From the NCBI GenBank assembly GCA_963770935.1, contig CAVYRJ010000001.1:160001-224000 (forward strand): a stretch of DNA of 64,000 nucleotides, in the 5' to 3' direction. The notes under the pieces were generated by a model. That model did not search any database, was not told the DNA's origin, and saw only the letters and a list, made by a program, of their open reading frames with translations. Below, piece by piece: positions 39,415 through 53,212 of the stretch; the stretch's first letter is position 1; each line of letters opens with the position of its first letter. The DNA comes from Candidatus Bathyarchaeota archaeon. Lineage in GTDB: Archaea > Thermoproteota > Bathyarchaeia > Bathyarchaeales > Bathycorpusculaceae. Position numbers and translations under genes: made by a program.

Positions 39415-42031
39415 TTATGGTCGTTTTCGGAGCATCAGAATTATTACTATTCCGATTACTAAGATTGCGATTATCGCTGCTGCGCCCAAGCCTAAAACGT
39501 ATGAGTCGGTCATTGATTCCGGTGCTGATGTTGGTGCGGGAGTGGACGAAGGAGCTTCTTCTACGTATATGGCGGTTTCCGCATTGGAAGACCAGTAAGA
39601 CTTAGAACCAGCAAAAGTAGCAATGATAGTGTATTTGCCTGGAACCTCCGGAGTAAAGGCATAGCTGTATGTGCCACTTGCGTCACTAGTAGTGTTGCCA
39701 ACCTCGTAGTAATTGTTGTTCGGGTCAAGCACACTTAAAACAACCTCAACTCCTTTCACGTCAGTGGGTTTCGACTGTTGCATGTAAACATACTCCATCC
39801 ACGCACTCATATCTACGTCAGATACAGCAGGAACTCCATTTGGAAAACGTAGGTCTTGTTCAAGTTGCGTCGTGCCAGGAGAAATATCAGTTACTCTGCC
39901 TTCAATCAGTACTTTGTTGCCATGCGTTGACACCTTGGGAGATGCTGTTACGATAGTGGCGCTTGGTCCCTTGCCGAATGAATATATCTGCGCGTCAAAG
40001 AAGTTGAGTCCTAAGATGAAGCCGTCTGCGATAACTGCGGTAGTCGATGTGAGATGCCCTCCGCCAACTCCGGCTCCGTAGAATAATGTTTTAAATATTT
40101 CCTTTCCTGTTTCCGCGTCTATGCAACGAAGGTTTTGACCGCGAAATAGAGGTTGCGTTGGTGAGTGTTCACCAGTAACTGTGTATATTTTTCCGTCTGC
40201 AACGCAGAATGCGTAGATTGGATAGTCGCCGTAAGGAGATTCATAGCCAACGCCTGTTGCGGTGTAATTCCACAAGACTTCTCCGGTCTTTATATCGTAG
40301 GCAAACATTACTCCGGAGTAGCCAAAGGTTAAGATTTTGCCTTGGTAGACATAGTTATAGATGCCATAGTATTGAAAATCGGGTTCAGGGTTAGTTGGAC
40401 CCCACAGTCTATTACCCGTTTCTAAGTCGAAGCCCCAGAGTTCCTTCGTCAGTGAATTTGTATAGTAGAAAACACCATCTTCTGGTGCTACAAATGGCCC
40501 AAAAACCGCTCCTCTATACATCGATACGTAGGTTTCTATTGGTGCTACATCAAATGGTGGCGTAAAGGTATAGTTCCAAATCAATTGTCCCTCTTGCCCT
40601 GGTTTCAGGCTTAATTTCCACATGTTGCCTAAAACAAGCGGCTGACCTTCTTTGTTTACTCCTGAAGTTCCACCGATTATATACTCGTCCTCAAGAACCG
40701 CGCGGATGCTGCCCTGTACTGCCTTTGTTATCGTCACGTTCAATGAGAATGCCGTGTCCCCGTTATGAACAGGTAGCCTTTCGGGTCTCCATTGCCATAA
40801 ATCAGTTCCTCCTGTTCCTAATAGCATAGTAGGTATTGCAGATGAGTTCCAAACTTGTAAATATTGTATCCCACCTGATGTGACTAGGTTGTATCGCAAT
40901 ATGCTTCCGTCTTTACCATAGACAGCTGTACCGCCAGCAGATACGTTAGCTATTAAGGTTACCGTGTTTCCTGTGAATCCGTCAAGCATTTCCCAAGTTT
41001 GAGTACCTGACCTGACTTGTATAACCAGATGGTAAGGTGACGCCGGAGGTTCTCCATAGGTATGAGAAGCCTCCGTGCTGGTTTGGTGACTCATAGTTGT
41101 ATATCGAACCAAATGCCGGCATGGTTTTGTTGTCTAAAGATAGCGTTTCGCCTGTGTAGAGATCAACGGCATAGTAGCCCTGTATTGTTTGTGCTGTGTT
41201 ACGTGCTTCGTAGTAAAGTTTTCCTTGGATAATTATAGGGGTGAAACTAAGACCTGCGTAGTGCCCTGTCATGTAGCCTGTATCATTAAAACGAGCGTCC
41301 ATGATTCCTCCGGCAAAATATGGTTTTGTCCAAATTATGTGAGCGCTTTCTGGAGCTTGACCGAAGCTGAAACGAGTAGTTTGACCAGCCAGTGGAATAG
41401 CTCCAGTCCAAGTTTGAGCGGAGCCCCCCAGCCAGTTTCCTGTAATTTGCCACCAAGCTCTGTTGGCACTGTTTATTGGGCGAGTCCAGTATTCGGTTGG
41501 AAGAGGTGTCTCTTTCCATCCTTCTATGGGGTCAGTTTGTACAGTAATTGTTGTTGGATCGCTTGTGCTGCCAACATAAGTATCGTTGATGTATGCAACG
41601 CCAGGTTGGGTCACTATATAGGGGTTTAGAGGAAGACCTGTTATTGTGTCATTAACCATTCTTGCCACGAAAGTGTATGTGCCGACTTGATCAGGTACGT
41701 ACGTGGTGTACCCAGCGCCCACTGGATCAGATGTGATAGGTCCGAGTGTTTGTGTTGTTTCGTCAGGTTTTGTAACATCTACATAGAAGGTGAACCTGTC
41801 ACCGTAAGCGCCCCCAGCTGTGGGGGGAACGGTGTTACTAAACATGACAACCAATAGCTGCTGGCCGATGCCTACAGTGTGTGGACTAACAGCAATGTAA
41901 GTCCAGGTAGGAATCACCCACGGAGGACTATGAGCTGAAACTACCGGCAAATTAAGAAGTGGAAAAGCAATAGTCATAATCAGAAACAACGTAGTCATGA
42001 AGGCAATTGTTTTTTTCTTTGAAAATTTCAT
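39415..42031 (-). CDS. Secreted, C-terminally anchored PQQ-like beta-propeller protein, one +1 frameshift at ~41010
   Basis: Signal peptide, PLPTEYWTRPIN, APESAHIIWTKP, ESPYGDYP, ADGKIY, PAVSDVDMSAWMEY, TM + RKR. ORFs 40982-42031 and 39415-41112 join at AGTCAG(G)TCAGGT. Confidence 0.9.
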
Positions 42032-42057
42032 GTTTTTCTTTTCCTATAATTATAATT

Positions 42058-42130
42058 GACAAAAGCAAGCTTTTGAGAGGTTGCCTTGCCAACAGAAACA
42101 GATATTTTTGCTAGATGTATATTAAATTAA
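42058..42130 (-). promoter_or_regulatory. Conserved TATA + hairpin leader (copy A) of beta-propeller gene
   Basis: Aligns without gaps to 50191-50263. Confidence 0.7.
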
Positions 42131-42514
42131 CCATTCTTGAAAAGACGCCATGGGAAAATATGTAATTTTGATATTTAAATGGTTGTCATAGTGTGGAATA
42201 TCGTGTAATGCTTAGGGTTTTGAGTTTTTTCTTTCGGTTGCCGTTAAATAAAATAAAAAAATAGAAAGGCGGGAGATTTTGCCACTTTAATCTTATAGAA
42301 GCCAAATAAGACTAATATGCGAGAAGACCAGGGCCTACTTTGTTCACATAAGAAGGCGGGTGTTGCTCACCAAAATTAACAATTTTTCATAGCAGTGTTC
42401 TAAAGGTAAGACTAAACGACCTTCAAAGGTTGAGACCCGCGGTGATAAACTTCATTAACCAAACCTGTTATTGATCCTGTGATCTGTCCTAGACAATAAA
42501 TCCGACGGGTAAAT

Positions 42515-43153
42515 TCAGTTAAACCGATAGTTTTCTAAAATCTTGGCAATCACATCTTCAATTCCTTTAGGAAAAGGGACTCCGTGTACTTTTTCATCAC
42601 CCAAATAAACTAGGGAATGTTTCGGATTACCAGGAATCCACTCTTCGTATTTTGCTAACCATAAACTGAGATGGAGATCAAGTTTTTCTAGATACATTTC
42701 CAGATCATCTTTTTCTTTTTGGTTCGTTTTTAATAAATTAACGTCGATTTTTTGAGCAAGTTTTTGAATCTTCTTGTTCAAAGGGAGAAGAGCTCCTTTT
42801 GTTTGGCTGCGAATTATCAAGTGTGTTTCTTTATGTCTCGGTTTCATTTTGTCATAAAGACTTTCAAATGTTTCTTCAAACCCGACAAATTTTCGGATTT
42901 CTTCAGGAAATTGATCTTTTAAATTCTTGGCAAGTTCGTCCCTATGCTCACATTGAAGATCGAAAACACGTTTTTGAACAGTAATAAGTCTGTGCAGAGA
43001 TTTCAAATTTGAAATATTATCTGCGACAATCGCCTGGTTTACTTTTCTGCGCTCAATTAACTCTCTAACAAAATAAGCGACTGTTGCAAAAACAGCACCA
43101 ATTATTGCTGCACCCAGCCAATCTGGAAATTCTGTAAACAAAGACATTTCCAT
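42515..43153 (-). CDS. Hypothetical protein with N-terminal TM helix
   Basis: WLGAAIIGAVFATVAYFV, followed by a helical domain ending HGVPFPKGIE. Confidence 0.75.
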   Translation of the reverse strand: MEMSLFTEFPDWLGAAIIGAVFATVAYFVRELIERRKVNQAIVADNISNLKSLHRLITVQKRVFDLQCEHRDELAKNLKDQFPEEIRKFVGFEETFESLYDKMKPRHKETHLIIRSQTKGALLPLNKKIQKLAQKIDVNLLKTNQKEKDDLEMYLEKLDLHLSLWLAKYEEWIPGNPKHSLVYLGDEKVHGVPFPKGIEDVIAKILENYRFN

Positions 43154-43354
43154 AATCCATCCTGTCTCGATAATGAGACGAGAACTATCTCTTAGTATTC
43201 TACTGGGAATGAGATCTATTTAGAATTATTGATCCATTCACAGCTAAATGTAATTTTATAAAACATTTCGGGTGTGGAAAGAAGTTGAATGCGATTCGTT
43301 TATTTGACTATTTAAGGAAGCCTATAAGAAAAATAAAAAGGGAGGTTGCGGGTG

Positions 43355-43396
43355 ATGTCTCCAGAAAATGATAGGTCCGTACTAGACGACGAGCCC
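43355..43396 (+). pseudogene. Putative integrase N-terminal stub (intN) running into the att site
   Basis: GGAGG...GGTG-ATG then MSPENDRSVLDDEP, reading through the 21-bp repeat. Confidence 0.45.
43376..43396 (+). repeat. att site, right copy (tRNA-Arg 5' fragment)
   Basis: Identical to 24480-24500. Confidence 0.93.
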
Positions 43397-43415
43397 AACG
43401 CTTGTTTATGCCCAG

Positions 43416-43424
43416 AAATTTAAA
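43416..43424 (-). promoter_or_regulatory. Probable original tRNA-Arg TATA box
   Basis: TTTAAA on the minus strand 23-28 nt upstream of the tRNA 5' fragment. Confidence 0.55.
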
Positions 43425-43588
43425 GGGCAGAATAGTAAATACTTTGCTTAAACTTAAAAATAGTGGTCTTGAAAGCAACTGTTATTTAGGAAAAAGTCGA
43501 TTTGAACTGGGTTCTTTAGGTGTTTAGCTCTCAAACATTATCGCAGCGCAATGCTCTATCATAAATGGGTGAAGAAAAATGCGCACTG

Positions 43589-45190
43589 TTAACTTTTACT
43601 CAATACTCTTTGCAACGCAGCGATGACGTTTTGTTTTCCCATAGCAAGTACGTATGGGCCAAGACGTGGACCCTGTGGTGCACCCATCAAAACCTGATAG
43701 AGCACTTTGAAGAATGCGCCTGGTTTTATGTCGTTATCTTTGGCAGTGTTGAAGATGGCGTTTTGGATTTTGTCTGGTTCGTCCTCGATCTGCAGTTTGG
43801 TGACAAGTTCGGTGAGGGCTTTCTTTTCTTCGACCGTTAGTTCTACGGCGGTTTCTTTGATTTCCTCAAAGTCGCGTGTCCAGTTAAAAGCGTATTCTAT
43901 TCGCTGCTTTAATCCATCGTCTAAAGTCTGGTTTTTTTGCAGGTAACCGTAGCTTTGCAGTTTCTCAGTGACATAGTCAAATAGGCATTCTTTGGGAGCC
44001 ATTTTTACTAGGAACGCCATGAGGTTGTAGGGTACGTGAATGCTGGATTTGGTCGGGGGTTTCATGACATAGCAGTACAGGTATAAACCCCTGAGTTTGG
44101 CGGCTTCTTTTTCGCCGACCTGCTTTTTGCCAAAATACACATCCTCTAAAGAGTCAAGTTCGTTCATGTACGTTGGAATATCGGAGACATCCAAGGCGCG
44201 TGTGCCTACGAAACGTTTCAGCATAAGCAAAAGCAGCGATTGGGATGAACCATATTTGAACCATACTTGAGGTGTAAACACATTGCCTGCTGACTTTGAA
44301 ATTTTTTTTCCGCCCTTGTCAAGGAACATTTCGTATTTTGCATGTGATGGAGGCTCGAAACAGAGAACTTCGCGGCAAATACGGTCGTTAATTCGTACTG
44401 AGTCAGCGATATCTTTGCCGTAAGCTTCAAACCTAATGTCAAGAGCCTTCCAGCGAGCAGCGAACTCGCTTTTCCAAGTCAGTTTACCTTCGCCGCTTTT
44501 TATATCTACCTCGCCTTCATGGCCGCAGCCGGCAATCAGTTTGCCTCGGATTTCGAGCCCTTCACATTTGTAGGAGACCTTATCGGTCTTGGGGTCATAC
44601 TTGTAGGCTCTCGTCGTGTAGAGATGCCCACATTTCTCGCAAACAGCAAAATAAGGCAAAAACTCGGTGTAGGTTTCTTGGCCAACTTCTTCTTTAACGA
44701 TTTCTCCGATTTTTTTGGCGTTGGTGAGTATGGTTCGAATCTCGTTTAGAAGCAGGCCTTTCTCGTAAACTTGCTTAGCAGAAAAATACGTGTATTCTAT
44801 GCCGCATTTATCTAAGGCATCCAGAAGCAGTGAACTCATGTGTTTGCCGTAGCTTTCGTGGCACCCATACGGGTCAGGTATACTGGAGACAGAATACCCA
44901 AGATACTTTTCCATCTCCTTTGGGAGCCCTGCGGGAACCTTGCGCAAACCATCTTTATCGTCGCAGAAGGCAACAAGTTCAGAATTATATTTCATGTTCT
45001 TGAGTGCCAATGTAACTGCATAGCTGCGTGATGCATCGCCTAAGCTACCGATGTGGGGAAAACCTGAAGCGCCCAATCCCATTTCGGTGCGGATTCGGCT
45101 CATGTCTCGGTTTAGAGTTTGCTCTCGTTCGATGACTTTCTTTGCCATCATGTCGTACCATGTGCCATGACCAATAGTCTCTTCACTCAT
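43589..45190 (-). CDS. lysS: Class I lysine--tRNA ligase
   Basis: GASGFPHIGS (HIGH-like), EAYGKD, KISKSAGN (KMSKS-like), GPRLG. Confidence 0.97.
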   Translation of the reverse strand: MSEETIGHGTWYDMMAKKVIEREQTLNRDMSRIRTEMGLGASGFPHIGSLGDASRSYAVTLALKNMKYNSELVAFCDDKDGLRKVPAGLPKEMEKYLGYSVSSIPDPYGCHESYGKHMSSLLLDALDKCGIEYTYFSAKQVYEKGLLLNEIRTILTNAKKIGEIVKEEVGQETYTEFLPYFAVCEKCGHLYTTRAYKYDPKTDKVSYKCEGLEIRGKLIAGCGHEGEVDIKSGEGKLTWKSEFAARWKALDIRFEAYGKDIADSVRINDRICREVLCFEPPSHAKYEMFLDKGGKKISKSAGNVFTPQVWFKYGSSQSLLLLMLKRFVGTRALDVSDIPTYMNELDSLEDVYFGKKQVGEKEAAKLRGLYLYCYVMKPPTKSSIHVPYNLMAFLVKMAPKECLFDYVTEKLQSYGYLQKNQTLDDGLKQRIEYAFNWTRDFEEIKETAVELTVEEKKALTELVTKLQIEDEPDKIQNAIFNTAKDNDIKPGAFFKVLYQVLMGAPQGPRLGPYVLAMGKQNVIAALQRVLSKS

Positions 45191-45264
45191 ACTGCCGCCT
45201 TCTGCATCATGACTGTAAGACGGAATAGAAAAATGTTTAGAGCCAAAAAAAGGCTCAGGCGATA

Positions 45265-45603
45265 TTATTTGCGTTTTAGTGCAGCTACGATTGAGAGAGC
45301 TGCCATAGCCAGCAGGATTACAATTAGCGAGTATAGCCAGTTAAACCCGAATAGATACCACGCAGCTCCGATGACTATTAGACCTAATCCTGCAGCCATT
45401 GTGCTGAAGCTTCCGCGTTCATATTTCTGCAGTTTGTCTGCACGCAAGCTACCTAACGCAATTGCCCATAAACCGCAAAGCACCAGTACCACTGGAACAA
45501 ACAAACCCCAGCCGATGACTCCTGCAACCGCCAGCAGTATTCCTACCACAATGATAATTAGGAATACTCCAAAGCTTAGCAGTTGACGGTCGCTATTGCT
45601 CAC
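45265..45603 (-). CDS. Small 4-TM membrane protein
   Basis: Four hydrophobic helices; last gene of the SPFH operon. Confidence 0.8.
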   Translation of the reverse strand: MSNSDRQLLSFGVFLIIIVVGILLAVAGVIGWGLFVPVVLVLCGLWAIALGSLRADKLQKYERGSFSTMAAGLGLIVIGAAWYLFGFNWLYSLIVILLAMAALSIVAALKRK

Positions 45604-45613
45604 AGGGTTTCTC

Positions 45614-46591
45614 CTAACCGATTTTAAATCCGCATTCAGGGCAGAACTTGCTGTTGGCTGGGATTGATTTGCCGCAGTTTGGGCATGCCATAGCTTGTTG
45701 GGTTGGTGGTGTTAGGTTGGTTCCACAGTTGGGGCAGAATTTGCTGGTCGCCGGGACTTTTTCTCCGCATTTAGGGCAGATAACTAAAGCTGCAGCGGGG
45801 GCTGCTTGTGGTGCTCCTTGCTGATTCATGATTTGTGGGATAAGTACCATTCCTGCTCCAAGTGCTCCTGCTCCTCCTCCTTGACCAAGACTTGCTGCTG
45901 CGCTCTTGACGGTTTCCATTCGCAGCACGTCTCCTGGCGCTGTTTGTCCAGTTTTAAGCCAGAAGAGGCGTTCGCGGTATTCGGGTGTGGTATCGATACC
46001 TTCGAAGCGAAGGTCAGTTAATTCGATGCCGACGCGTTTGAAGTAGTCGATGAGTGTGTTTTTGACGATAACTGAGGTTTCATCGAGGCGTGTGAAGACT
46101 GTGATGAGGTCGTAGTGGCTGAGTTCATCGATTATTTTTTCGTTCAGAAAGCCTCGTAGGAAGCTGTTGACTTCGTCAGTTGTATAGGCGTTTTGTCCCC
46201 CGATGACTTCGTTGACAAACAACGATGCGTCTGCGACTTTAAACCAGAATTGTCCGTAGGTTTGAAGTGGTGCGAGTTCGGTTGTTTGTGCTTTTGTACC
46301 CCATTTGCCAGCGAAAACTTTGGTGCTTATGAATAGGACTGTCGCTTTGAAGGGCTTGTTGCCGCCAAAGCCTACAAGACGAGTTAGCAGACTTGTCAGA
46401 ATGGGCAGATTAAGAGTAGTTAGGGTGTGTCTACCGGCACCAAACACGTCGTAGGCTTTGCCATCACGGAAAAACACTGCCATCTCGTATTCATGTACGA
46501 TTAACTGGGCACCCCAGGTTATGTCTTCGTTTGGGTAACGCCATACGATAGCGTCTGGACCAGCGTTTGTCCACTCTATTATTTGCGGCAT
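45614..46591 (-). CDS. SPFH/band-7 domain protein with double zinc ribbon (YdjI-like)
   Basis: IVWRYP..I.WGAQLIVHEYEMAVFFRDGK...GRHTLTTLNLP; C-terminal CPKC/CPNC/CPNC/CPEC. Confidence 0.9.
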   Translation of the reverse strand: MPQIIEWTNAGPDAIVWRYPNEDITWGAQLIVHEYEMAVFFRDGKAYDVFGAGRHTLTTLNLPILTSLLTRLVGFGGNKPFKATVLFISTKVFAGKWGTKAQTTELAPLQTYGQFWFKVADASLFVNEVIGGQNAYTTDEVNSFLRGFLNEKIIDELSHYDLITVFTRLDETSVIVKNTLIDYFKRVGIELTDLRFEGIDTTPEYRERLFWLKTGQTAPGDVLRMETVKSAAASLGQGGGAGALGAGMVLIPQIMNQQGAPQAAPAAALVICPKCGEKVPATSKFCPNCGTNLTPPTQQAMACPNCGKSIPANSKFCPECGFKIG

Positions 46592-47130
46592 TACTGTGTC
46601 ACTCCCATGATTACTTCTTCTCTTTTATCAAACGTGTCTTCGAGCAACTCAAACTTGTCAGTTATGGCTTGTATTTTGTCTTTGAGATTTGAGAAGTTAT
46701 TGCTCAACAACTGCAGCTTTAACTCTTCAATACTGGTTGTTAACGCGTTTACTTCGTCGAGAAGTTGGTTGTCGAAGTTTATCATCTTGTCAAGGTTGTC
46801 TTCCTTGATTTTCACTATGTCATAGAAGCCTGAGTAACCGTATGAGGCATGGTTTACTTTTTCGGTTATGCGATCCATTTTAGCGGTCAACCTATCGATG
46901 TCGGGCAAAACGTCTAGGTAACGTTTATCGGCTATTTTTTGAGCAATGCTTCTGACGTTATCTTTTCCTTTGGAGAGTTTGAGGGTTAGATTGTTCCTAA
47001 TCAGTTTGTCTGATTCGCGGCGGAGTTCCTTCTCTTTGTATCCGCGGAACCCTGGAAGCGCCGCAGCTATGCGTTCTGAAAGCCTCATTTGGCTTTTTGC
47101 TTGGGCATATACATCTTTATTTTCGGTCAT
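46591..47130 (-). CDS. Conserved all-helical hypothetical protein
   Basis: LPGFRGYKEKELRRESDKLIR...ASYGYSGFYD; translationally coupled to the SPFH gene. Confidence 0.8.
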   Translation of the reverse strand: MTENKDVYAQAKSQMRLSERIAAALPGFRGYKEKELRRESDKLIRNNLTLKLSKGKDNVRSIAQKIADKRYLDVLPDIDRLTAKMDRITEKVNHASYGYSGFYDIVKIKEDNLDKMINFDNQLLDEVNALTTSIEELKLQLLSNNFSNLKDKIQAITDKFELLEDTFDKREEVIMGVTQ

Positions 47131-47199
47131 TTCCTAAATCCTCCAATATTTGTATTCCGTTATAAAAAAGAGCTTGCTTTTAAAGTTTATTAAAACAAA

Positions 47200-47943
47200 T
47201 TAGAACTTGGAAGAGGGGATATCGCCCTTTAAAACTGTACCCGTTGCACCATCAACTATCATCTGGTAAACGTTGCCCTTGTATTCGTACTTTATGAACC
47301 AAATAGGCGCATGTAAGTAAACCATCTGTTCCAAATCAATGGTAGTGGTGGCTTCTACGATTTTATCGATGTCCTGCTGAAGCAGAAACCGATGCAGCGC
47401 TTCAATTTGCTGCTTAGCAATCTCTAAGGCTTCATCGCGGGTCATTTCACTGTTTAGCAATTTGGCGAAGCCTTCGATTTTCCTGAAATCGTACGGGATT
47501 TTTCCTGTTAAGGGAACATTGTATTCTCGGGTGGGGAAGCCAGAAGCTTCTCGAGCTAAAACCAGCCAGTTGTATTCTTTCTGGATTTGTCCTTCTTTCA
47601 CAATCGCGGGGGATATTCGCTCGAAAATTCCTTTGTACTTGGTTGCAGCTTGGGCGGAAACAATCCAAAAGGGCAAATAAACCAGTTTTTTTTCGGTTAA
47701 TTTAGCTTTTTTTGCTAAATCTCCAGGTTTCATGAAACCCGAGCGCATCCAATCGCGCACTACTCCCTCCACTTGCTCTTCCGAATAGCTGTTTAGCATT
47801 AAGGAATGCTCAAAAGTAAAGGCTTGCCCAGTCTCAATTACTGTTGTGAAGCCGCAGTATTTGCAGGTAGCCACCAGCTCACCTGGCTTAAACTCGACTG
47901 GGGCACCGCAATGTGAACACTTTATGTTCTGAGCTATTGCCAT
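47200..47943 (-). CDS. Zinc-ribbon protein (YdjG-like)
   Basis: CSHCGAP...CKYCG; VYLPFW; PIWFIKYEYKG...VDGATG. Confidence 0.75.
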   Translation of the reverse strand: MAIAQNIKCSHCGAPVEFKPGELVATCKYCGFTTVIETGQAFTFEHSLMLNSYSEEQVEGVVRDWMRSGFMKPGDLAKKAKLTEKKLVYLPFWIVSAQAATKYKGIFERISPAIVKEGQIQKEYNWLVLAREASGFPTREYNVPLTGKIPYDFRKIEGFAKLLNSEMTRDEALEIAKQQIEALHRFLLQQDIDKIVEATTTIDLEQMVYLHAPIWFIKYEYKGNVYQMIVDGATGTVLKGDIPSSKF

Positions 47944-47948
47944 GCTGA

Positions 47949-49334
47949 TTAAGCCTTCAGTAGTTTTTCTCGTTTAAGGATTTCTCTTGCAACGATAACT
48001 CCTGAAGCTGATGCCTGGATTAGCCCTCGTGTGACTCCTGCGCCATCGCCGATAGTGAACATGTTCTTGATTTTTGATTCTAAAGCGTTGTTTAGTTGCA
48101 GGTGTGAGGAGTAGAATTTGACTTCGACGCCATAGAGTAGTGTTTCAGGTGAAGCAACGCCTGGCGCGATTTTGTCTAATGCTTGAAGCATTTCCCGTAT
48201 GTCAGTGAGGTAGCGGTAAGGTAGCACGAAGCTTAAGTCGCCTGGAGTGGCGTTTTTGAGGGTCGGCGTAACCACGCTATGGGATAATCGTTCAGGTGTG
48301 GAACGACGACCATGATTCAAATCGCCAAGCCGCTGAACCATTACACCACCGCTTAGTAGGTTGGAGAGTCTTGCCACGTATTTGCCGTAGGCGATTGGTT
48401 CTTTGAAAGGTTCAGTAAAAGAGGTACTCACGAGGATAGCGAAGTTGGTGTTGTTTGTTCTTGTTTCCGCATGGCTACCCCCGTTGACCGTTAAGACACC
48501 ATCGTAGGATTCTGTGGTAACCTCTCCGTAGGGTGAAACACAGAAAGTGCGCACCATATCATCAAAATCCCGTGAATAATAAACCAGTTTTGGCTCGTAG
48601 AGTGCTTTAGTTAGTTTCTCCATAACAGAAGCCAAAAGCTCAACCCGCACACCGATGTCCACTGGGTTATTTACTGTTTTTAACCCGCGGATTTGAGCTT
48701 CAGTCTGAAGCCATTCTGCTCCGCTTCTTCCAGGAGCAATTATCACGTATTTGCCGTAGAATTTCTCGCCGTTTACGGTTTCGACACCTTGAATAGTATG
48801 ATTTTCTGCGATTAACCCTTTCACGTCGGTTTTTGGTTGGAAAGTGATTTTGCCGTTGAGTGCTCTGCGCATTCGTTGCAGGGTTTCGAGACATTTGTCG
48901 GTGCCCATATGGCGGACTTCTTGCTTGATAAGTTTTAATCCCGCAAGTGACGCTTGGCGTTCGATTTCATCTATTTCCGAGTTTTCTCCGCCAAAAACTT
49001 GTTCACTGGCGCCGAATTTGATGTAGATGCTGTCACAGTACTTTACAAGTTCAGCTAATTCTTTAGTTGAAACATACTGGTTTAGCCATCCGCCAACCTC
49101 TGTTGATAAGGTAAGTTTGCCGTCACTGTAGGCACCTGCGCCTCCCCATCCCGAGAGAACGGAGCAAGGTTCACAATGGACACATTCGAAGCCTCGGCTT
49201 GAGGGGCACTTACGTTTATCAATGTCGAGTCCTCGGTCAAGTATTAAGACGTTGAGGTTTGTTTTCTCTGTTAGTTCTAGCGCTGAGAAGATGCCTGCTG
49301 GACCTGCGCCCACGATTATTACATCATATTTCAA
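47949..49334 (-). CDS. FAD-dependent oxidoreductase (uncharacterised family)
   Basis: IVGAGPAG, GWGGAGAYSDGKL, VDIGVRVE, VRTFC, TNFAILV, YGVEVKFYS, IGDGAGVTRG. Confidence 0.9.
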   Translation of the reverse strand: MKYDVIIVGAGPAGIFSALELTEKTNLNVLILDRGLDIDKRKCPSSRGFECVHCEPCSVLSGWGGAGAYSDGKLTLSTEVGGWLNQYVSTKELAELVKYCDSIYIKFGASEQVFGGENSEIDEIERQASLAGLKLIKQEVRHMGTDKCLETLQRMRRALNGKITFQPKTDVKGLIAENHTIQGVETVNGEKFYGKYVIIAPGRSGAEWLQTEAQIRGLKTVNNPVDIGVRVELLASVMEKLTKALYEPKLVYYSRDFDDMVRTFCVSPYGEVTTESYDGVLTVNGGSHAETRTNNTNFAILVSTSFTEPFKEPIAYGKYVARLSNLLSGGVMVQRLGDLNHGRRSTPERLSHSVVTPTLKNATPGDLSFVLPYRYLTDIREMLQALDKIAPGVASPETLLYGVEVKFYSSHLQLNNALESKIKNMFTIGDGAGVTRGLIQASASGVIVAREILKREKLLKA

Positions 49335-49636
49335 GGACCTTTACCCCCTTGGAACCCAAAGTTAGATGCAACAACTAGCATATATTTTTAGCTGCAGCGC
49401 TTCAAACAGCAAGCAAGTTATTCTTCGGCGTGATGTGTTAAGCACAAGGACTTTAGTTTTTTTTGCAAGTGTTTTTGAATTGATGGTGCAGCATTCGGCT
49501 TTTTCTGTTTGACCGTTTTTTGATTGAATATTTTCACTGTGTCCATATTCTTCTCTAAAGTAATCATGTGTATTTTTAAGATATATCTAATAAACATTTA
49601 ATACAGAATACTTCCCATAAACTAAAGCGAACACCA

Positions 49637-50107
49637 ATGCCCAAAGAACCCCAATCCGAAAACATTGATGATTTAATCAGCGACTTCTCACGTTTCTACA
49701 TACTCATAATACTCTACGAAAAACCAGTCCACGGCTACAGCATAATCAGCCAATTCAAAAAACGGATCAAAAAAGAAATCAGTCCAAGCCTAGTCTACCC
49801 CTTCCTACAACTACTCGAAGAAAAAGGCTTAGTCACGCACACCAAAAAGTCCATTGGCAAGAAAGAAAGAAAAATCTTCCAACTCACAGAAGAAGGCAGA
49901 GAGTTATGTAAAGGGCTCTTCAAGCGTTTCGCTGAGTTGGTAGCAATTGCCATTGAACCAAGTCTCTATGTCTGCGCCCATTGCGGCTGTAAAGTCTACG
50001 AGGGCGGCTACCGAGAAGTCATCGAGAGCAAAGAAATGGCGTTTTGCTGCATGCACTGCGCCCGCTCGTATAAAGAAGTTAAGAAGTTAGTTAGACAATC
50101 GAAGTAA
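49637..50107 (+). CDS. PadR-family regulator with C-terminal TRASH-like metal-binding domain
   Basis: HGYSII...SPSLVYPFLQLLEEKGLV...RKIFQLTEEG; CAHCGC...FCCMHCA. Confidence 0.88.
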   Translation: MPKEPQSENIDDLISDFSRFYILIILYEKPVHGYSIISQFKKRIKKEISPSLVYPFLQLLEEKGLVTHTKKSIGKKERKIFQLTEEGRELCKGLFKRFAELVAIAIEPSLYVCAHCGCKVYEGGYREVIESKEMAFCCMHCARSYKEVKKLVRQSK

Positions 50108-50190
50108 GTCGGTAAAGTGCAGTAAAATCACTATCAACCCTTTTCGCCAATCAAAATTTATTTACAATTTTCAGCCAATTTATCTACGCA

Positions 50191-50263
50191 ATAATTTAAT
50201 ATACTTCTAGCGAAGATACCGCTTTGGTCAGGCAGGGCAATCACTCAATAGTTATGCCTTGCC
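50191..50263 (+). promoter_or_regulatory. Conserved TATA + hairpin leader (copy B) of beta-propeller gene
   Basis: TTTAATATA box; GGCAGGGCA...TGCCTTGCC stem; matches 42058-42130 on the minus strand. Confidence 0.7.
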
Positions 50264-50286
50264 TAAAGAATCAGGAGAAAGGAAAA

Positions 50287-52881
50287 ATGCAAAATGTAAA
50301 AAAATTTTTGACTTCTTTGATTGCTTTAATACTGATGTTATCAATGACGATTCCGCTCGTTGAACTACCGGCTGCTACTGCACATGACCCTCCATGGGTT
50401 TATCCCACATGGTGTTATTGCGTTGTAGTAAATAATGTCATAGGCGTAGGACAAACCGAGAAGATAATTCTTTGGGTTAACAGTATCCCACCTACAGCTA
50501 ACGGTCAATACGGTGACAGATGGAAATTTACAATCGATATAATGAAACCAGATGGAACAAACGATACCATAGGACCTATCGAATCGGATCCAGTAGGAAG
50601 TGTATACACTATGTATGTACCTGCTGAACCAGGCAATTACTCAGTTGTAGTAAAGTTTCCTACAACTACATTAACTGGCCTGCCTAAGAAACCCGGTGTA
50701 CCCGATACTCAACAATCTGGTTACGCAAATATCAACGACACATATCTGGCAAGCAAAAGCGACCCCGTTTCTTTCTATGTACAGGAAGAACCCATAACAC
50801 TTTGGCCGGAAACCCCTCTTCCGACAGAGTATTGGGCACGTCCTATCAATACTGCAAACATATACTGGTACACGCTCGCAGGTAACTGGTTAGGAGGAGC
50901 AGCTCAAAACGTTGGACCAACAACCAATTTCGGTTACGGCAATGCGCCAGAAAGTCCACACGTAATGTGGACTACACCTGCATTTACAGGTGGTCTAATG
51001 GACGCCCGGTTCGGAGACTATACTTACGTAACATCCCACTATGAAGGTCTTGGTTTCTCGCCATACATACTAGACGGAAAGATTTTCTTCAACTCACCTA
51101 ACCCTCAGATGAGGGAAGGATGGTACTGCCTTGATTTATACACTGGCAATCAACTATATTTCCATAATAACACTGGTCCCGTTTCAGGCTCAGGCGGCGG
51201 ATTCGATGCACATGGAAGTATTAGTCAAGGATCGCTGGCGTTTGCACAAATATATGACCCCGAGTTAGCAAACCAAATGGGAGGCTACCCGTACCTATGG
51301 AGTACCACTGCACCAACCTCAAACACTTGGCTAATGTATGATGCTTATACTGGCAACTACATCTGCAGCATAGCTAATGTATCAGCGAGTGGCACCGCGG
51401 TTTATGCAAAAGATGGAAGTATTTTGCGCTATAACATTGCAGGCACAGGTGCCAATACACGTTTAACGGTGTGGAATACAACACAAGCAATCTGGTGGAA
51501 AGGAACACAACAAATGTACCAAAACGGCGATTACTCTGGCTTCTCAGGCAACAATTATGCAAGTTGGCGACCTTACCTCAACTACACTTTTGATGGGAGC
51601 CATGGATTTTCATTAAACGTAAGCATACCTGCTATACAAGGTTCAATTCGCGCGGTACGGGAAGATCAATTCGTAATCGGTGGAACAACAGGAAGTAACA
51701 ATGAAAACGGCATAACAAAGGGGCACTTATGGGCACTGAATTTGGATCCAACAAAAGGCGCAATGGGTTCATTACTTTGGAACGTATCTTTCACCCCGCC
51801 CTCTTCGGCTGGCAACAAAACCATAAGCATGGGAACCGTTGACCCAGAAGATAACGTGTTCCTGTTTGCGTGTACACAGACTAGAACAAGGTGGGGCTTC
51901 AGCCTAGAAACTGGAGAACAACTATGGGAAAGTGAGCCAGAAGAACAAATGAAGTACTACGGCATGGGCAACACCAACATTTACCAAGGCAAACTAATTT
52001 CAGGCACGTATCTCAATGGTGGAATATTGATTTGCTATGACATAAAAACTGGCGAAATCCTCTGGAAATACGAACCAGTCAACATAGGAACAGAGTCTCC
52101 TTTCGGAGATTATCCTGCACAGTTGGCATGCATTGCAGACGGCAAAATTTTCATCTATTCAAGTCCTCTTTGGCGCACTCAGCCGTTATGGCGTGGCTCA
52201 TATCTACGTTGCATCAACGCATCAAATGGTGCAGAGCTTTGGAAAGTTTTGCATTATGGGTCTGTCGTCATAGCCGATGGTTTACTTGTAGGCCTCAATT
52301 TTTATGACAACCGAATATACTGCTACGGCAAAGGTCCAAGCGCATTAACTGTCACAGCACCAGATGTTGGAATAGAACTAGGAAAATCATTGGTAATTCG
52401 CGGCACAGTTAAGGATGTTTCAGTGGGCACCAAGCAACATGAGCAGATCTCTCGATTCCCCAACGGCGTTCCAGCGGTTTCAGACGAAAGCCAACAACCA
52501 TGGATGGAGTACATATATGAACAGCAATCCCGACCCGCAAACGCGACAGGCGTTCCAGTAACGGTAGACGTTATAGATTCCAACGGAAACTACAGAAACA
52601 TAGGACAAACAAACAGCGATGCAAATGGAATGTTTACTCTAACATGGACGCCGGACATAGAAGGCTCATACACCGTCTATGCAACTTTCGCTGGCTCAAA
52701 ATCCTATTGGCCATCATCTGCCGAAACCAGTTTCTCAGTCGACACTGCACCACCAACGCCATCTCCTTACCCCGTAACTACATTGCCCCCAACTGAAACG
52801 TACATCTTAGGCATAGGAATTGCAATAATCTTAGCCATAGCCATAGCTACCCTAGTAATTATCAGAAGTGTAAAAAAGTAG
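50287..52881 (+). CDS. Secreted, C-terminally anchored PQQ-like beta-propeller protein (intact paralog)
   Basis: Signal peptide from MQNVKK, PLPTEYWARPIN, APESPHVMWT, ADGKIF, PAVSDESQQPWMEY, Pro/Thr linker, TM + KK. Confidence 0.92.
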   Translation: MQNVKKFLTSLIALILMLSMTIPLVELPAATAHDPPWVYPTWCYCVVVNNVIGVGQTEKIILWVNSIPPTANGQYGDRWKFTIDIMKPDGTNDTIGPIESDPVGSVYTMYVPAEPGNYSVVVKFPTTTLTGLPKKPGVPDTQQSGYANINDTYLASKSDPVSFYVQEEPITLWPETPLPTEYWARPINTANIYWYTLAGNWLGGAAQNVGPTTNFGYGNAPESPHVMWTTPAFTGGLMDARFGDYTYVTSHYEGLGFSPYILDGKIFFNSPNPQMREGWYCLDLYTGNQLYFHNNTGPVSGSGGGFDAHGSISQGSLAFAQIYDPELANQMGGYPYLWSTTAPTSNTWLMYDAYTGNYICSIANVSASGTAVYAKDGSILRYNIAGTGANTRLTVWNTTQAIWWKGTQQMYQNGDYSGFSGNNYASWRPYLNYTFDGSHGFSLNVSIPAIQGSIRAVREDQFVIGGTTGSNNENGITKGHLWALNLDPTKGAMGSLLWNVSFTPPSSAGNKTISMGTVDPEDNVFLFACTQTRTRWGFSLETGEQLWESEPEEQMKYYGMGNTNIYQGKLISGTYLNGGILICYDIKTGEILWKYEPVNIGTESPFGDYPAQLACIADGKIFIYSSPLWRTQPLWRGSYLRCINASNGAELWKVLHYGSVVIADGLLVGLNFYDNRIYCYGKGPSALTVTAPDVGIELGKSLVIRGTVKDVSVGTKQHEQISRFPNGVPAVSDESQQPWMEYIYEQQSRPANATGVPVTVDVIDSNGNYRNIGQTNSDANGMFTLTWTPDIEGSYTVYATFAGSKSYWPSSAETSFSVDTAPPTPSPYPVTTLPPTETYILGIGIAIILAIAIATLVIIRSVKK

Positions 52882-53212
52882 TAGCCAAAAAACTACAATC
52901 AACATTCCCTTTTTTTAAGGTCCCACAATCAACAGATGAGCACTAAGCGGTTTTGGGGGTTCAATTCTTTGCTAAAAGAAGTGGTTTTTTCATCCGCATT
53001 CTAGTTTTTGATTGCTACTGTATAGTTAAATGGCAAATCGCCGTAAATCTTTTTAATTCACGCTATGTTACCTGATAATATTCATTTCACCGAAAAATCA
53101 AATGGTTAATAAAACAGCTTCTCTTTTTTAAATCCAGAATCAAGAATTATAAGAGACCCTTTTAAAAGCATCCGAAAACTCAATTAAAAAAGTAGTCTTA
53201 AAACACTCTAAA

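Follow-up and report, generated by a model that had tools for sequence, protein, structure and literature searches.

Two paralogous genes with a common promoter and leader

The window analysed here, a 64,000-nt stretch of contig CAVYRJ010000001.1 (positions 160,001 to 224,000) from a bathyarchaeal assembly of 1.98 Mb in 18 contigs, contains two divergent paralogous genes, A and B, which are preceded by closely similar promoters and hairpin-forming 5′ leaders. Both encoded proteins combine a PQQ_2 beta-propeller with Ig-like domains and a signal-peptide-like N-terminus, and the nearest relatives of protein B carry the name Candidatus Bathyarchaeota. Paralog A (39415..42031, minus strand) starts at ATG 42031-42029 and its frame is split into a 349-aa open reading frame (ORF; 42031-40982) and a 565-aa ORF (41112-39415) that overlap at 40982-41112. 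Paralog B (50287..52881, plus strand), assigned by domain search and homologues, encodes 864 aa from ATG 50287. The longest ORF at this locus starts at TTG 50224, inside the leader hairpin, and a public protein of 885 aa shows 99% identity; however, the family alignment and the purine tract in front of the gene point to ATG 50287 as the true start.

The initial annotation had aligned the segments 42130->42058 (minus) and 50191->50263 (plus) as a promoter followed by a hairpin. The alignment is real: on recomputation, it is gapless, with 50 of 73 positions identical, and the two copies have in common the blocks TAATTTAATATAC, TCTAGC.AA.ATA and GGCA.GGCAA, as had been described. In copy A, the region of the TFB recognition element (BRE) and TATA box, TTAATTTAATATA, was located by sequence reading at 42118..42130 (minus), and we take it, with its TATA-like 8-mer TTAATATA at 42125-42118, to be an archaeal TATA box. 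It is followed by a conserved box, TCTAGCAAAAATAT (42102..42115, minus), which lies in the interval from the TATA box to the predicted transcription start, has further matches in the genome and is kept in copies of two relatives (G002 and G010). The leader hairpin, GTTGGCAAGGCAA ... TTGCTTTTGTCAAT (42055..42093, minus), identified by folding and covariation, starts 24 nt after the TATA 8-mer and gives way to an A-rich linker (42032..42054, minus) that is unpaired in the minimum-energy fold and carries the purine tract TAGGAAAAGAAAAA, the presumed ribosome binding region. The corresponding elements of copy B, all on the plus strand, are the BRE/TATA region ATAATTTAATATA (50191..50203), assigned by sequence reading and spacing; the conserved box TCTAGCGAAGATAC (50206..50219), by sequence reading and genome matches; the hairpin AGGCAGGGCA ... 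TGCCTTGCCT (50230..50264), by folding and membership in the covariation alignments; and the unpaired linker with its purine tract CAGGAGAAAGGAAAA (50265..50286), by sequence reading and folding. Each stem ends 23-26 nt upstream of its start codon (ATG at 42031-42029 on the minus strand for A and at 50287-50289 on the plus strand for B). The predicted folding energy is -12.4 kcal/mol for the copy A hairpin (z-score -2.65, three G-U pairs), compared to -8.4 kcal/mol (z-score -0.72) for its antisense strand, and -17.4 kcal/mol (z-score -3.73) for the copy B hairpin.

Upstream of the copy A promoter, inspection of the printed upstream sequences revealed an additional conserved block, CCATGGCGTCTTTTCAAGAATGG (42131..42153, minus), which is common to copies A, C17 and C13 and partly present in two copies of G002, making it a candidate upstream promoter element.

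Distribution of the leader

Only two copies are visible within the window, as the initial annotation had noted, but many more exist in the genome. A blastn search of the genome with leader A recovered copy B (75% identity, E = 5e-5) and four further copies (74-83% identity, E = 6.5e-7 to 3.2e-20), whereas nhmmer yielded six matches at E <= 5.5e-23 and three weaker matches limited to the leader. Because both methods recover further copies at low E-values, the match between A and B is beyond chance. A covariance model trained on 10 copies and applied with a reporting cut-off of E <= 1 gave 17 matches in the genome, all 17 located at 5′ ends of genes of the family. Thus, a homologous hairpin precedes 17 of the 31 family 5′ ends; the family-wide occurrence originally envisaged is only partly borne out, as the other 14 leaders are unrelated in sequence and at least three promoter types are found among the family copies.

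Beyond this genome, the same model gave matches in 6 of 36 further members of the genus but in 0 of 24 genomes from other families of the order. A second covariance model, searched against 120 genomes of the genus, recovered 55 copies in 18 genomes. In the relatives, 35 of 36 loci have an ORF that starts 61-98 nt after the start of the match, and all 35 of these ORFs match the family protein profile (E <= 1.4e-20). The comparison with Rfam (release 15), which had been suggested at the outset, matched the leader to no family: at the gathering score, the window contains two tRNAs only, and the six leader loci searched at E <= 1 yielded a single noise match (E = 0.83). When the TATA-plus-box combination was searched as an exact pattern in 185,579 species genomes, it was found at 37 loci, most of them bacterial and one in Bathyarchaeota, a count for which the chance expectation was not computed. 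At exact-match stringency, this promoter type is not class-wide.

The hairpin is a selected RNA structure

In an alignment of 47 leader copies (46 distinct, from 18 genomes) fitted to the covariance model, 95.0% of the cells are paired and 11 of the 12 pairs have changed on both sides. The covariation score (0.478) compares with 0.237 in shuffles, none of 500 shuffles being as high, and with at most 0.159 in slid controls; sliding the partner by a single column reduces pairing to 53-59%. Smaller alignments give the same picture. As a structure-blind complement to the model-fitted alignments, we used a plain MAFFT alignment, in which the five outer pairs, taken as stated columns, are paired in 94.7% of cells, with all five changed on both sides and again 0 of 500 shuffles as high. 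RNAalifold applied to 10 copies recovered only 8 outer pairs, with weak energy. Folded individually, all 45 distinct copies form one hairpin, with a mean z-score of -3.5 and 41 of the 45 below -2, and stems as different as TTGGCAGGGCAA, GAGTGAGGATTG and TTATCATGGTAA occupy the same position within this one genome. A structured leader common to the paralogs, with arms that differ in sequence yet pair partly through G-U, had been proposed from copies A and B, and the enlarged set bears this out.

An inverted repeat just downstream of a TATA box could also function in double-stranded DNA, as an operator to which a dimeric repressor of the PadR or TrmB type binds at the transcription start. Archaeal repressors often bind at precisely this position, regulator genes adjoin some of the paralogs (a PadR-TRASH gene at copy B and divergent TrmB-family genes at 4 of 31), and the arm TTGGCA.GGCAA is fairly conserved. 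However, a single protein could not read TTGGCAGGGCAA, GAGTGAGGATTG and TTATCATGGTAA, which coexist with two-sided compensation. Moreover, G-U pairs outnumber A-C mismatches by 61 to 13 (39 to 10 in a 36-row alignment), and the hairpin is more stable in the sense strand in 35 of 45 copies (-14.2 versus -11.1 kcal/mol for the antisense), a strand bias that double-stranded DNA lacks. The excess of G-U over A-C and the greater stability of the sense strand argue for an RNA hairpin rather than a DNA operator, and both indicate that pairing takes place in the transcript. Nor is the adjacency of PadR, to which the initial annotation linked the leader, a conserved arrangement: of the 30 PadR-TRASH loci checked, only 5 have a family gene at a distance of 1.5 kb or less, although such orthologues are found, mostly in single copy, in 101 of the 120 genomes of the genus. 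We consider the operator explanation improbable.

Folding is also a property of the family leaders as a group. Compared with 150 control upstream regions, folding is stronger in the 30 family leaders (mean z-score -1.79 versus -0.34; Mann-Whitney p = 1e-7), and also in the 14 leaders not matched by the model (-1.22 versus -0.18, p = 0.0016), despite their unrelated sequences. The data show that the hairpin has been selected as a base-paired sense-strand (RNA) structure that is specific to this gene family.

Conservation relative to neutral sites

Paralogy alone might account for similar upstream regions, so the leader has to be compared with neutral sites of the same genes. Identity among copies A, B, C17, C13, C3 and C11 is 35-56% for the proteins, 47-60% for aligned codons and 27-53% for four-fold synonymous sites, which are saturated, whereas the leaders retain 74-83% identity; the expectation that the leader would be conserved beyond synonymous sites is thus confirmed. 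The codon-based comparison was adopted in place of an identity measure with cheap gaps, which was uninformative (~0.72 for unrelated segments too).

In a tree of 54 N-terminal protein parts, from which rows with an N-terminal ORF shorter than 300 aa were excluded, carriers of the TATA-plus-box promoter are scattered: 11 changes are required to explain the 11 rows with this promoter, at least 9 of them if well-supported branches alone are considered, with loci L066-L083, in which the box was not inspected, pooled as 'other promoter'. Given this scatter, the promoter-leader module is not simply a young duplicate: either it is ancient and has been strongly conserved, or it has been transferred from paralog to paralog.

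These data bear on the explanation that the leader has no function of its own and is a leftover of duplication, or of gene conversion between paralog 5′ ends. The genes are indeed paralogs, the adjoining signal-peptide codons are also rather similar, and conversion could yield scattered carriers on the protein tree. Yet 74-83% leader identity next to saturated synonymous sites, compensatory changes in the stem and retention of the module across 18 species-level genomes are hard to reconcile with absence of function, and near-identical tracts expected of recent conversion were not seen. We therefore regard this explanation as very improbable.

Promoter types and the ribosome site

The fixed spacing from the TATA box, originally seen in two copies, extends to nearly all of those examined: in 28 of 29, the end of a top-scoring TATA-like 8-mer lies 21-26 nt (mostly 24-25) upstream of the G in front of the stem. 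The spacing is constant although the intervening sequences belong to at least three unrelated types. Placing the transcript start at the usual archaeal distance from the TATA box, we infer from this geometry that the stem begins at +1 to +3 of the transcript. Genome-wide, the distance from TATA box to ATG, measured with crude gene starts, has no clear peak.

The promoters themselves differ from copy to copy. The box TCTAGCAAAGATAC, a candidate for the operator proposed in the initial annotation, has 15 matches in the genome at <= 2 mismatches, only five of which are family copies where it follows a TATA box at the proper spacing, and it is also kept in copies of two other species (G002 and G010). 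Since the promoter modules differ between paralogs, transcriptional control appears to operate copy by copy; it is probably copy-specific, with the leader as the common post-transcriptional part.

Other paralogs carry the palindrome CTCAC-N5-GTGAG just upstream of the TATA box. This is the case for three of its four occurrences in the genome (C9:69555, C16:8661, C17:22057 and C4:149787), and in four copies from relatives (L058, L050, L040 and L047) the palindrome and the hairpin leader are combined. The Thermococcales glycolytic motif and TrmB-type operators have the form TATCAC-N5-GTGATA, and the bathyarchaeal palindrome resembles the TrmB-type motif TCAC-N5-GTGA. TrmB genes flank four paralogs. 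Whereas the palindrome is conserved in DNA sequence and precedes the TATA box, the hairpin follows the TATA box, covaries and is strand-biased, and thus belongs to a different kind of element. The divergent TrmB-family genes, beside 4 of 31 paralogs, are located at C3:31034-31879, C7:122929-123753, C9:28573-29388 and C9:135944-136801. On contig C4, two nearly identical genes for TFB (TFIIB-like) proteins (143332-144273 and 145297-146238) lie between two paralogs. The PadR protein encoded beside copy B (window 49637-50107, plus) has a C-terminal TRASH-like cysteine domain.

Downstream of the hairpin, an AGGA-type purine tract, e.g., AAAGGAAAGAAAAAAAATG, precedes the start codon in all 27 family genes with a script-assigned start; for comparison, AGGAAA is found before 54 of 1622 crude gene starts genome-wide. 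The tract is unpaired in the minimum-energy folds of copies A and B and of most of the 30 leaders. The assembly did not yield the conserved motif close to the 16S rRNA 3′ end from which the anti-Shine-Dalgarno sequence could have been read.

A predicted 5′-terminal expression element

The common sequence is best described as a promoter plus transcribed 5′ leader belonging to secreted PQQ-like beta-propeller/Ig proteins, a family found in a clade of Bathyarchaeia. By analogy with bacterial leaders, it may act as a 5′-terminal hairpin that stabilises the mRNA or promotes expression, with an open ribosome site behind it, a reading to which we assign slightly less than even confidence. The order of elements would be a TATA/BRE promoter, supplemented in some copies by the extra conserved box, a stem-loop of ~35-40 nt, and ~22 nt of presumably unpaired A-rich RNA with the AGGA purine tract, leading to the start codon. 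By analogy, the 5′-terminal stem-loop would shield the mRNA from decay that depends on the 5′ end, and the purine-rich ribosome site would stay accessible, so that the exported proteins could be produced stably and at a high level.

The leaders of Escherichia coli ompA and Bacillus subtilis aprE (both cited in PMC3997798) are 5′-terminal stabiliser stem-loops of mRNAs for abundant envelope or secreted proteins. Similarly, a stem-loop in the 5′ untranslated region of Lactobacillus slpA confers stability on the transcript and leaves its ribosome binding site exposed, according to a review (PMC10221546). As in slpA, ompA and aprE, a stem-loop near the mRNA 5′ end (here, predicted) precedes an accessible ribosome site and a gene for an exported protein. 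Unlike in these cases, the setting is archaeal, featuring a TATA promoter and beta-CASP nucleases instead of RNase E or J1, and one homologous hairpin with a conserved loop extends across many paralogs and species; for the bathyarchaeal leader, the 5′-end position is predicted from promoter geometry, and stabilisation is suggested by analogy. Decay in the 5′-to-3′ direction that depends on the 5′ end, as well as 5′-end protection, exist in archaea of the Thermoproteota type, with aCPSF2 responsible for decay and aIF2-gamma for protection (PMC3936769, PMC3792030); this is the pathway on which the hairpin would act. As described there, aIF2-gamma protects as a protein on the triphosphate end, whereas here a cis-acting RNA structure would protect. 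The genome encodes two beta-CASP ribonucleases. One of them (418 aa, contig C8) shows similarity to aCPSF1 in the catalytic part only and is devoid of the N-terminal part, as would be expected of a member of the 5′-to-3′ exonuclease group aCPSF2 (PMC3792030).

Several observations weigh against this interpretation or against the strength of its support. The leader is restricted to 18 of the 120 genomes of one genus. Because the leader copies are relatives, the shuffle and binomial figures and the p-values given above overstate significance, and the model-fitted alignments are biased towards structure. On the plain MAFFT alignment of 46 copies, RNAalifold predicted 0 pairs, a null result that we attribute to misplaced indels in the arms. 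The antisense strand of copy B folds as well as the sense strand (-17.6 kcal/mol), and for the whole leader (-100 to -15) the contrast between sense and antisense is weak (19 of 30, p = 0.08). One RNA contig begins at 50258, inside the 3′ arm, although contigs cannot show the transcript start. Finally, the loop CTCAAAAG is conserved beyond the need of a pure stabiliser.

The conservation of the loop invites the alternative that the leader is a regulatory RNA, in which either a dedicated RNA-binding protein recognises the loop or the loop itself, which is pyrimidine-rich and anti-Shine-Dalgarno-like (CCUCUC / CCUCCU), forms pairs with the purine tract in front of the start codon, such that translation of the family is switched together. 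The loop CTCAAAAG is kept even in a copy in which the whole stem has been replaced (C9:29487), and duplexes between loop and tail are somewhat stronger than those with shuffled loops (mean z-score -0.74, 8 of 44 below -1.64, Wilcoxon p = 1e-4), with individual strong ones at -8 to -10 kcal/mol. However, most of these duplexes amount to ~3 pairs (-2.4 to -3.1 kcal/mol), covarying pairs between loop and tail were not shown, a candidate binding protein was not identified, and inspection of the alignment reveals no tandem G-A signature of a kink-turn. The conserved loop and its modest complementarity to the purine tract keep the regulatory alternative alive, with a modest weight, and we see it as a plausible but unlikely one. 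Still less likely, in our estimate, is the more specific proposal that the hairpin is the address label of a post-transcriptional regulon of the family, whereby a dedicated factor, or pairing with the purine tract, reads the CUCAAAAG loop and jointly switches translation or stability for a dozen or more surface-enzyme paralogs, while the promoters (with the TrmB-type palindrome or the TCTAGCAAAGATAC box) choose the paralog. If true, an archaeon would control its variable surface repertoire in two layers.

Two known classes of structured leaders were also considered: riboswitches, which have a ligand pocket of several helices with invariant unpaired nucleotides plus an alternative expression platform, and kink-turns, in which tandem sheared G-A pairs flank a three-nucleotide bulge. 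The 'riboswitch-like' label given at the outset does not suit a single hairpin with a stem whose sequence is free to change and which has no match in Rfam; all 45 copies form one simple hairpin with varying stem letters and no conserved pairing that sequesters the ribosome site, which is weak evidence in itself. A leader with an L7Ae-bound kink-turn is not indicated either, given a bulge of 0-2 nt and no conserved tandem G-A, as judged by alignment inspection only, with no formal kink-turn search.

The stabiliser interpretation would make the leader a new motif of a familiar kind, probably a conventional expression-control element, and it changes no general principle. To our knowledge, cis-acting RNA structures supported by covariation are few in archaea, and none has been described for Bathyarchaeia, an abundant uncultured lineage of sediments, for whose PQQ-like surface proteins lignin or humic matter has been suggested as the target. 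The leader offers a testable idea of how such cells keep the mRNAs of their surface proteins abundant, and, as a compact expression element, it is a candidate for trial in archaeal genetic systems. It also provides a handle for true gene starts, given that public gene calls begin one copy inside the hairpin.

The protein family and its transcripts

A profile of the full-length protein matched 47 ORF pieces in the genome, which merge by eye into ~33 loci, ~10 of them with split reading frames. The split loci are either real pseudogenes or assembly errors; in the family copy on contig C8, stops are present in both relevant frames just after the start codon, and one indel would be insufficient to reopen the frame. 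According to PMC11697101, families of secreted PQQ-domain (pfam13360), 'PQQ-dehydrogenase-like' proteins are expanded in Bathy-6 Bathyarchaeia, to tens of copies per genome. To judge from the features given there, namely, a Sec signal peptide, a PQQ-like propeller and Ig-like domains, these are the same proteins as those described here. The words promoter, UTR (untranslated region), hairpin and upstream have 0 occurrences in the main text of that article, so the cis element is not described in that text.

Split frames in a large surface-protein family, and the location of the leader between promoter and coding region, raise the possibility of a site-specific recombination site in the 5′ untranslated region that moves promoters between silent and expressed paralogs, for which the vsa and vsp systems of mycoplasmas are a precedent. 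Two arms of ~12-15 nt flanking a short centre would suit such a site, as would split reading frames at ~10 of 33 loci. On the other hand, a correctly spaced TATA box of its own is present in every examined copy, and the arms vary from copy to copy, showing compensatory changes and a strand bias. In the metatranscriptome contigs, no inversion joints were seen at the leaders, a weak indication, and recombinase genes were not looked for. We consider recombination at the leader extremely improbable.

The metatranscriptome material consists of contigs from three runs of two studies, the third run being probably DNA. In two sediment runs of one study, contigs with ~98% identity cover paralog B from 50258 to 52818, which hints that this gene is well expressed in a close relative. 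The segment 42388-44323 upstream of paralog A, which includes part of a lysyl-tRNA synthetase gene, is not covered by any metatranscriptome contig, and uncovered parts are uninformative.

At their 3′ ends, we looked for a longer structured trailer RNA behind the stop codons of the family genes in this genome and saw none. Nearly all paralogs end in TAA or TAG followed by ~20-30 nt of A/C-rich sequence, TTCCC and a run of 5-8 T. The TTCCC plus T run (e.g., window 52882-52920) would represent a short common trailer, presumably a terminator. A curious locus, C14:21130-21667 in the same genome, has a complete leader and a signal-peptide start, followed by only the last ~107 residues of the family protein, and looks like an internally deleted family copy.

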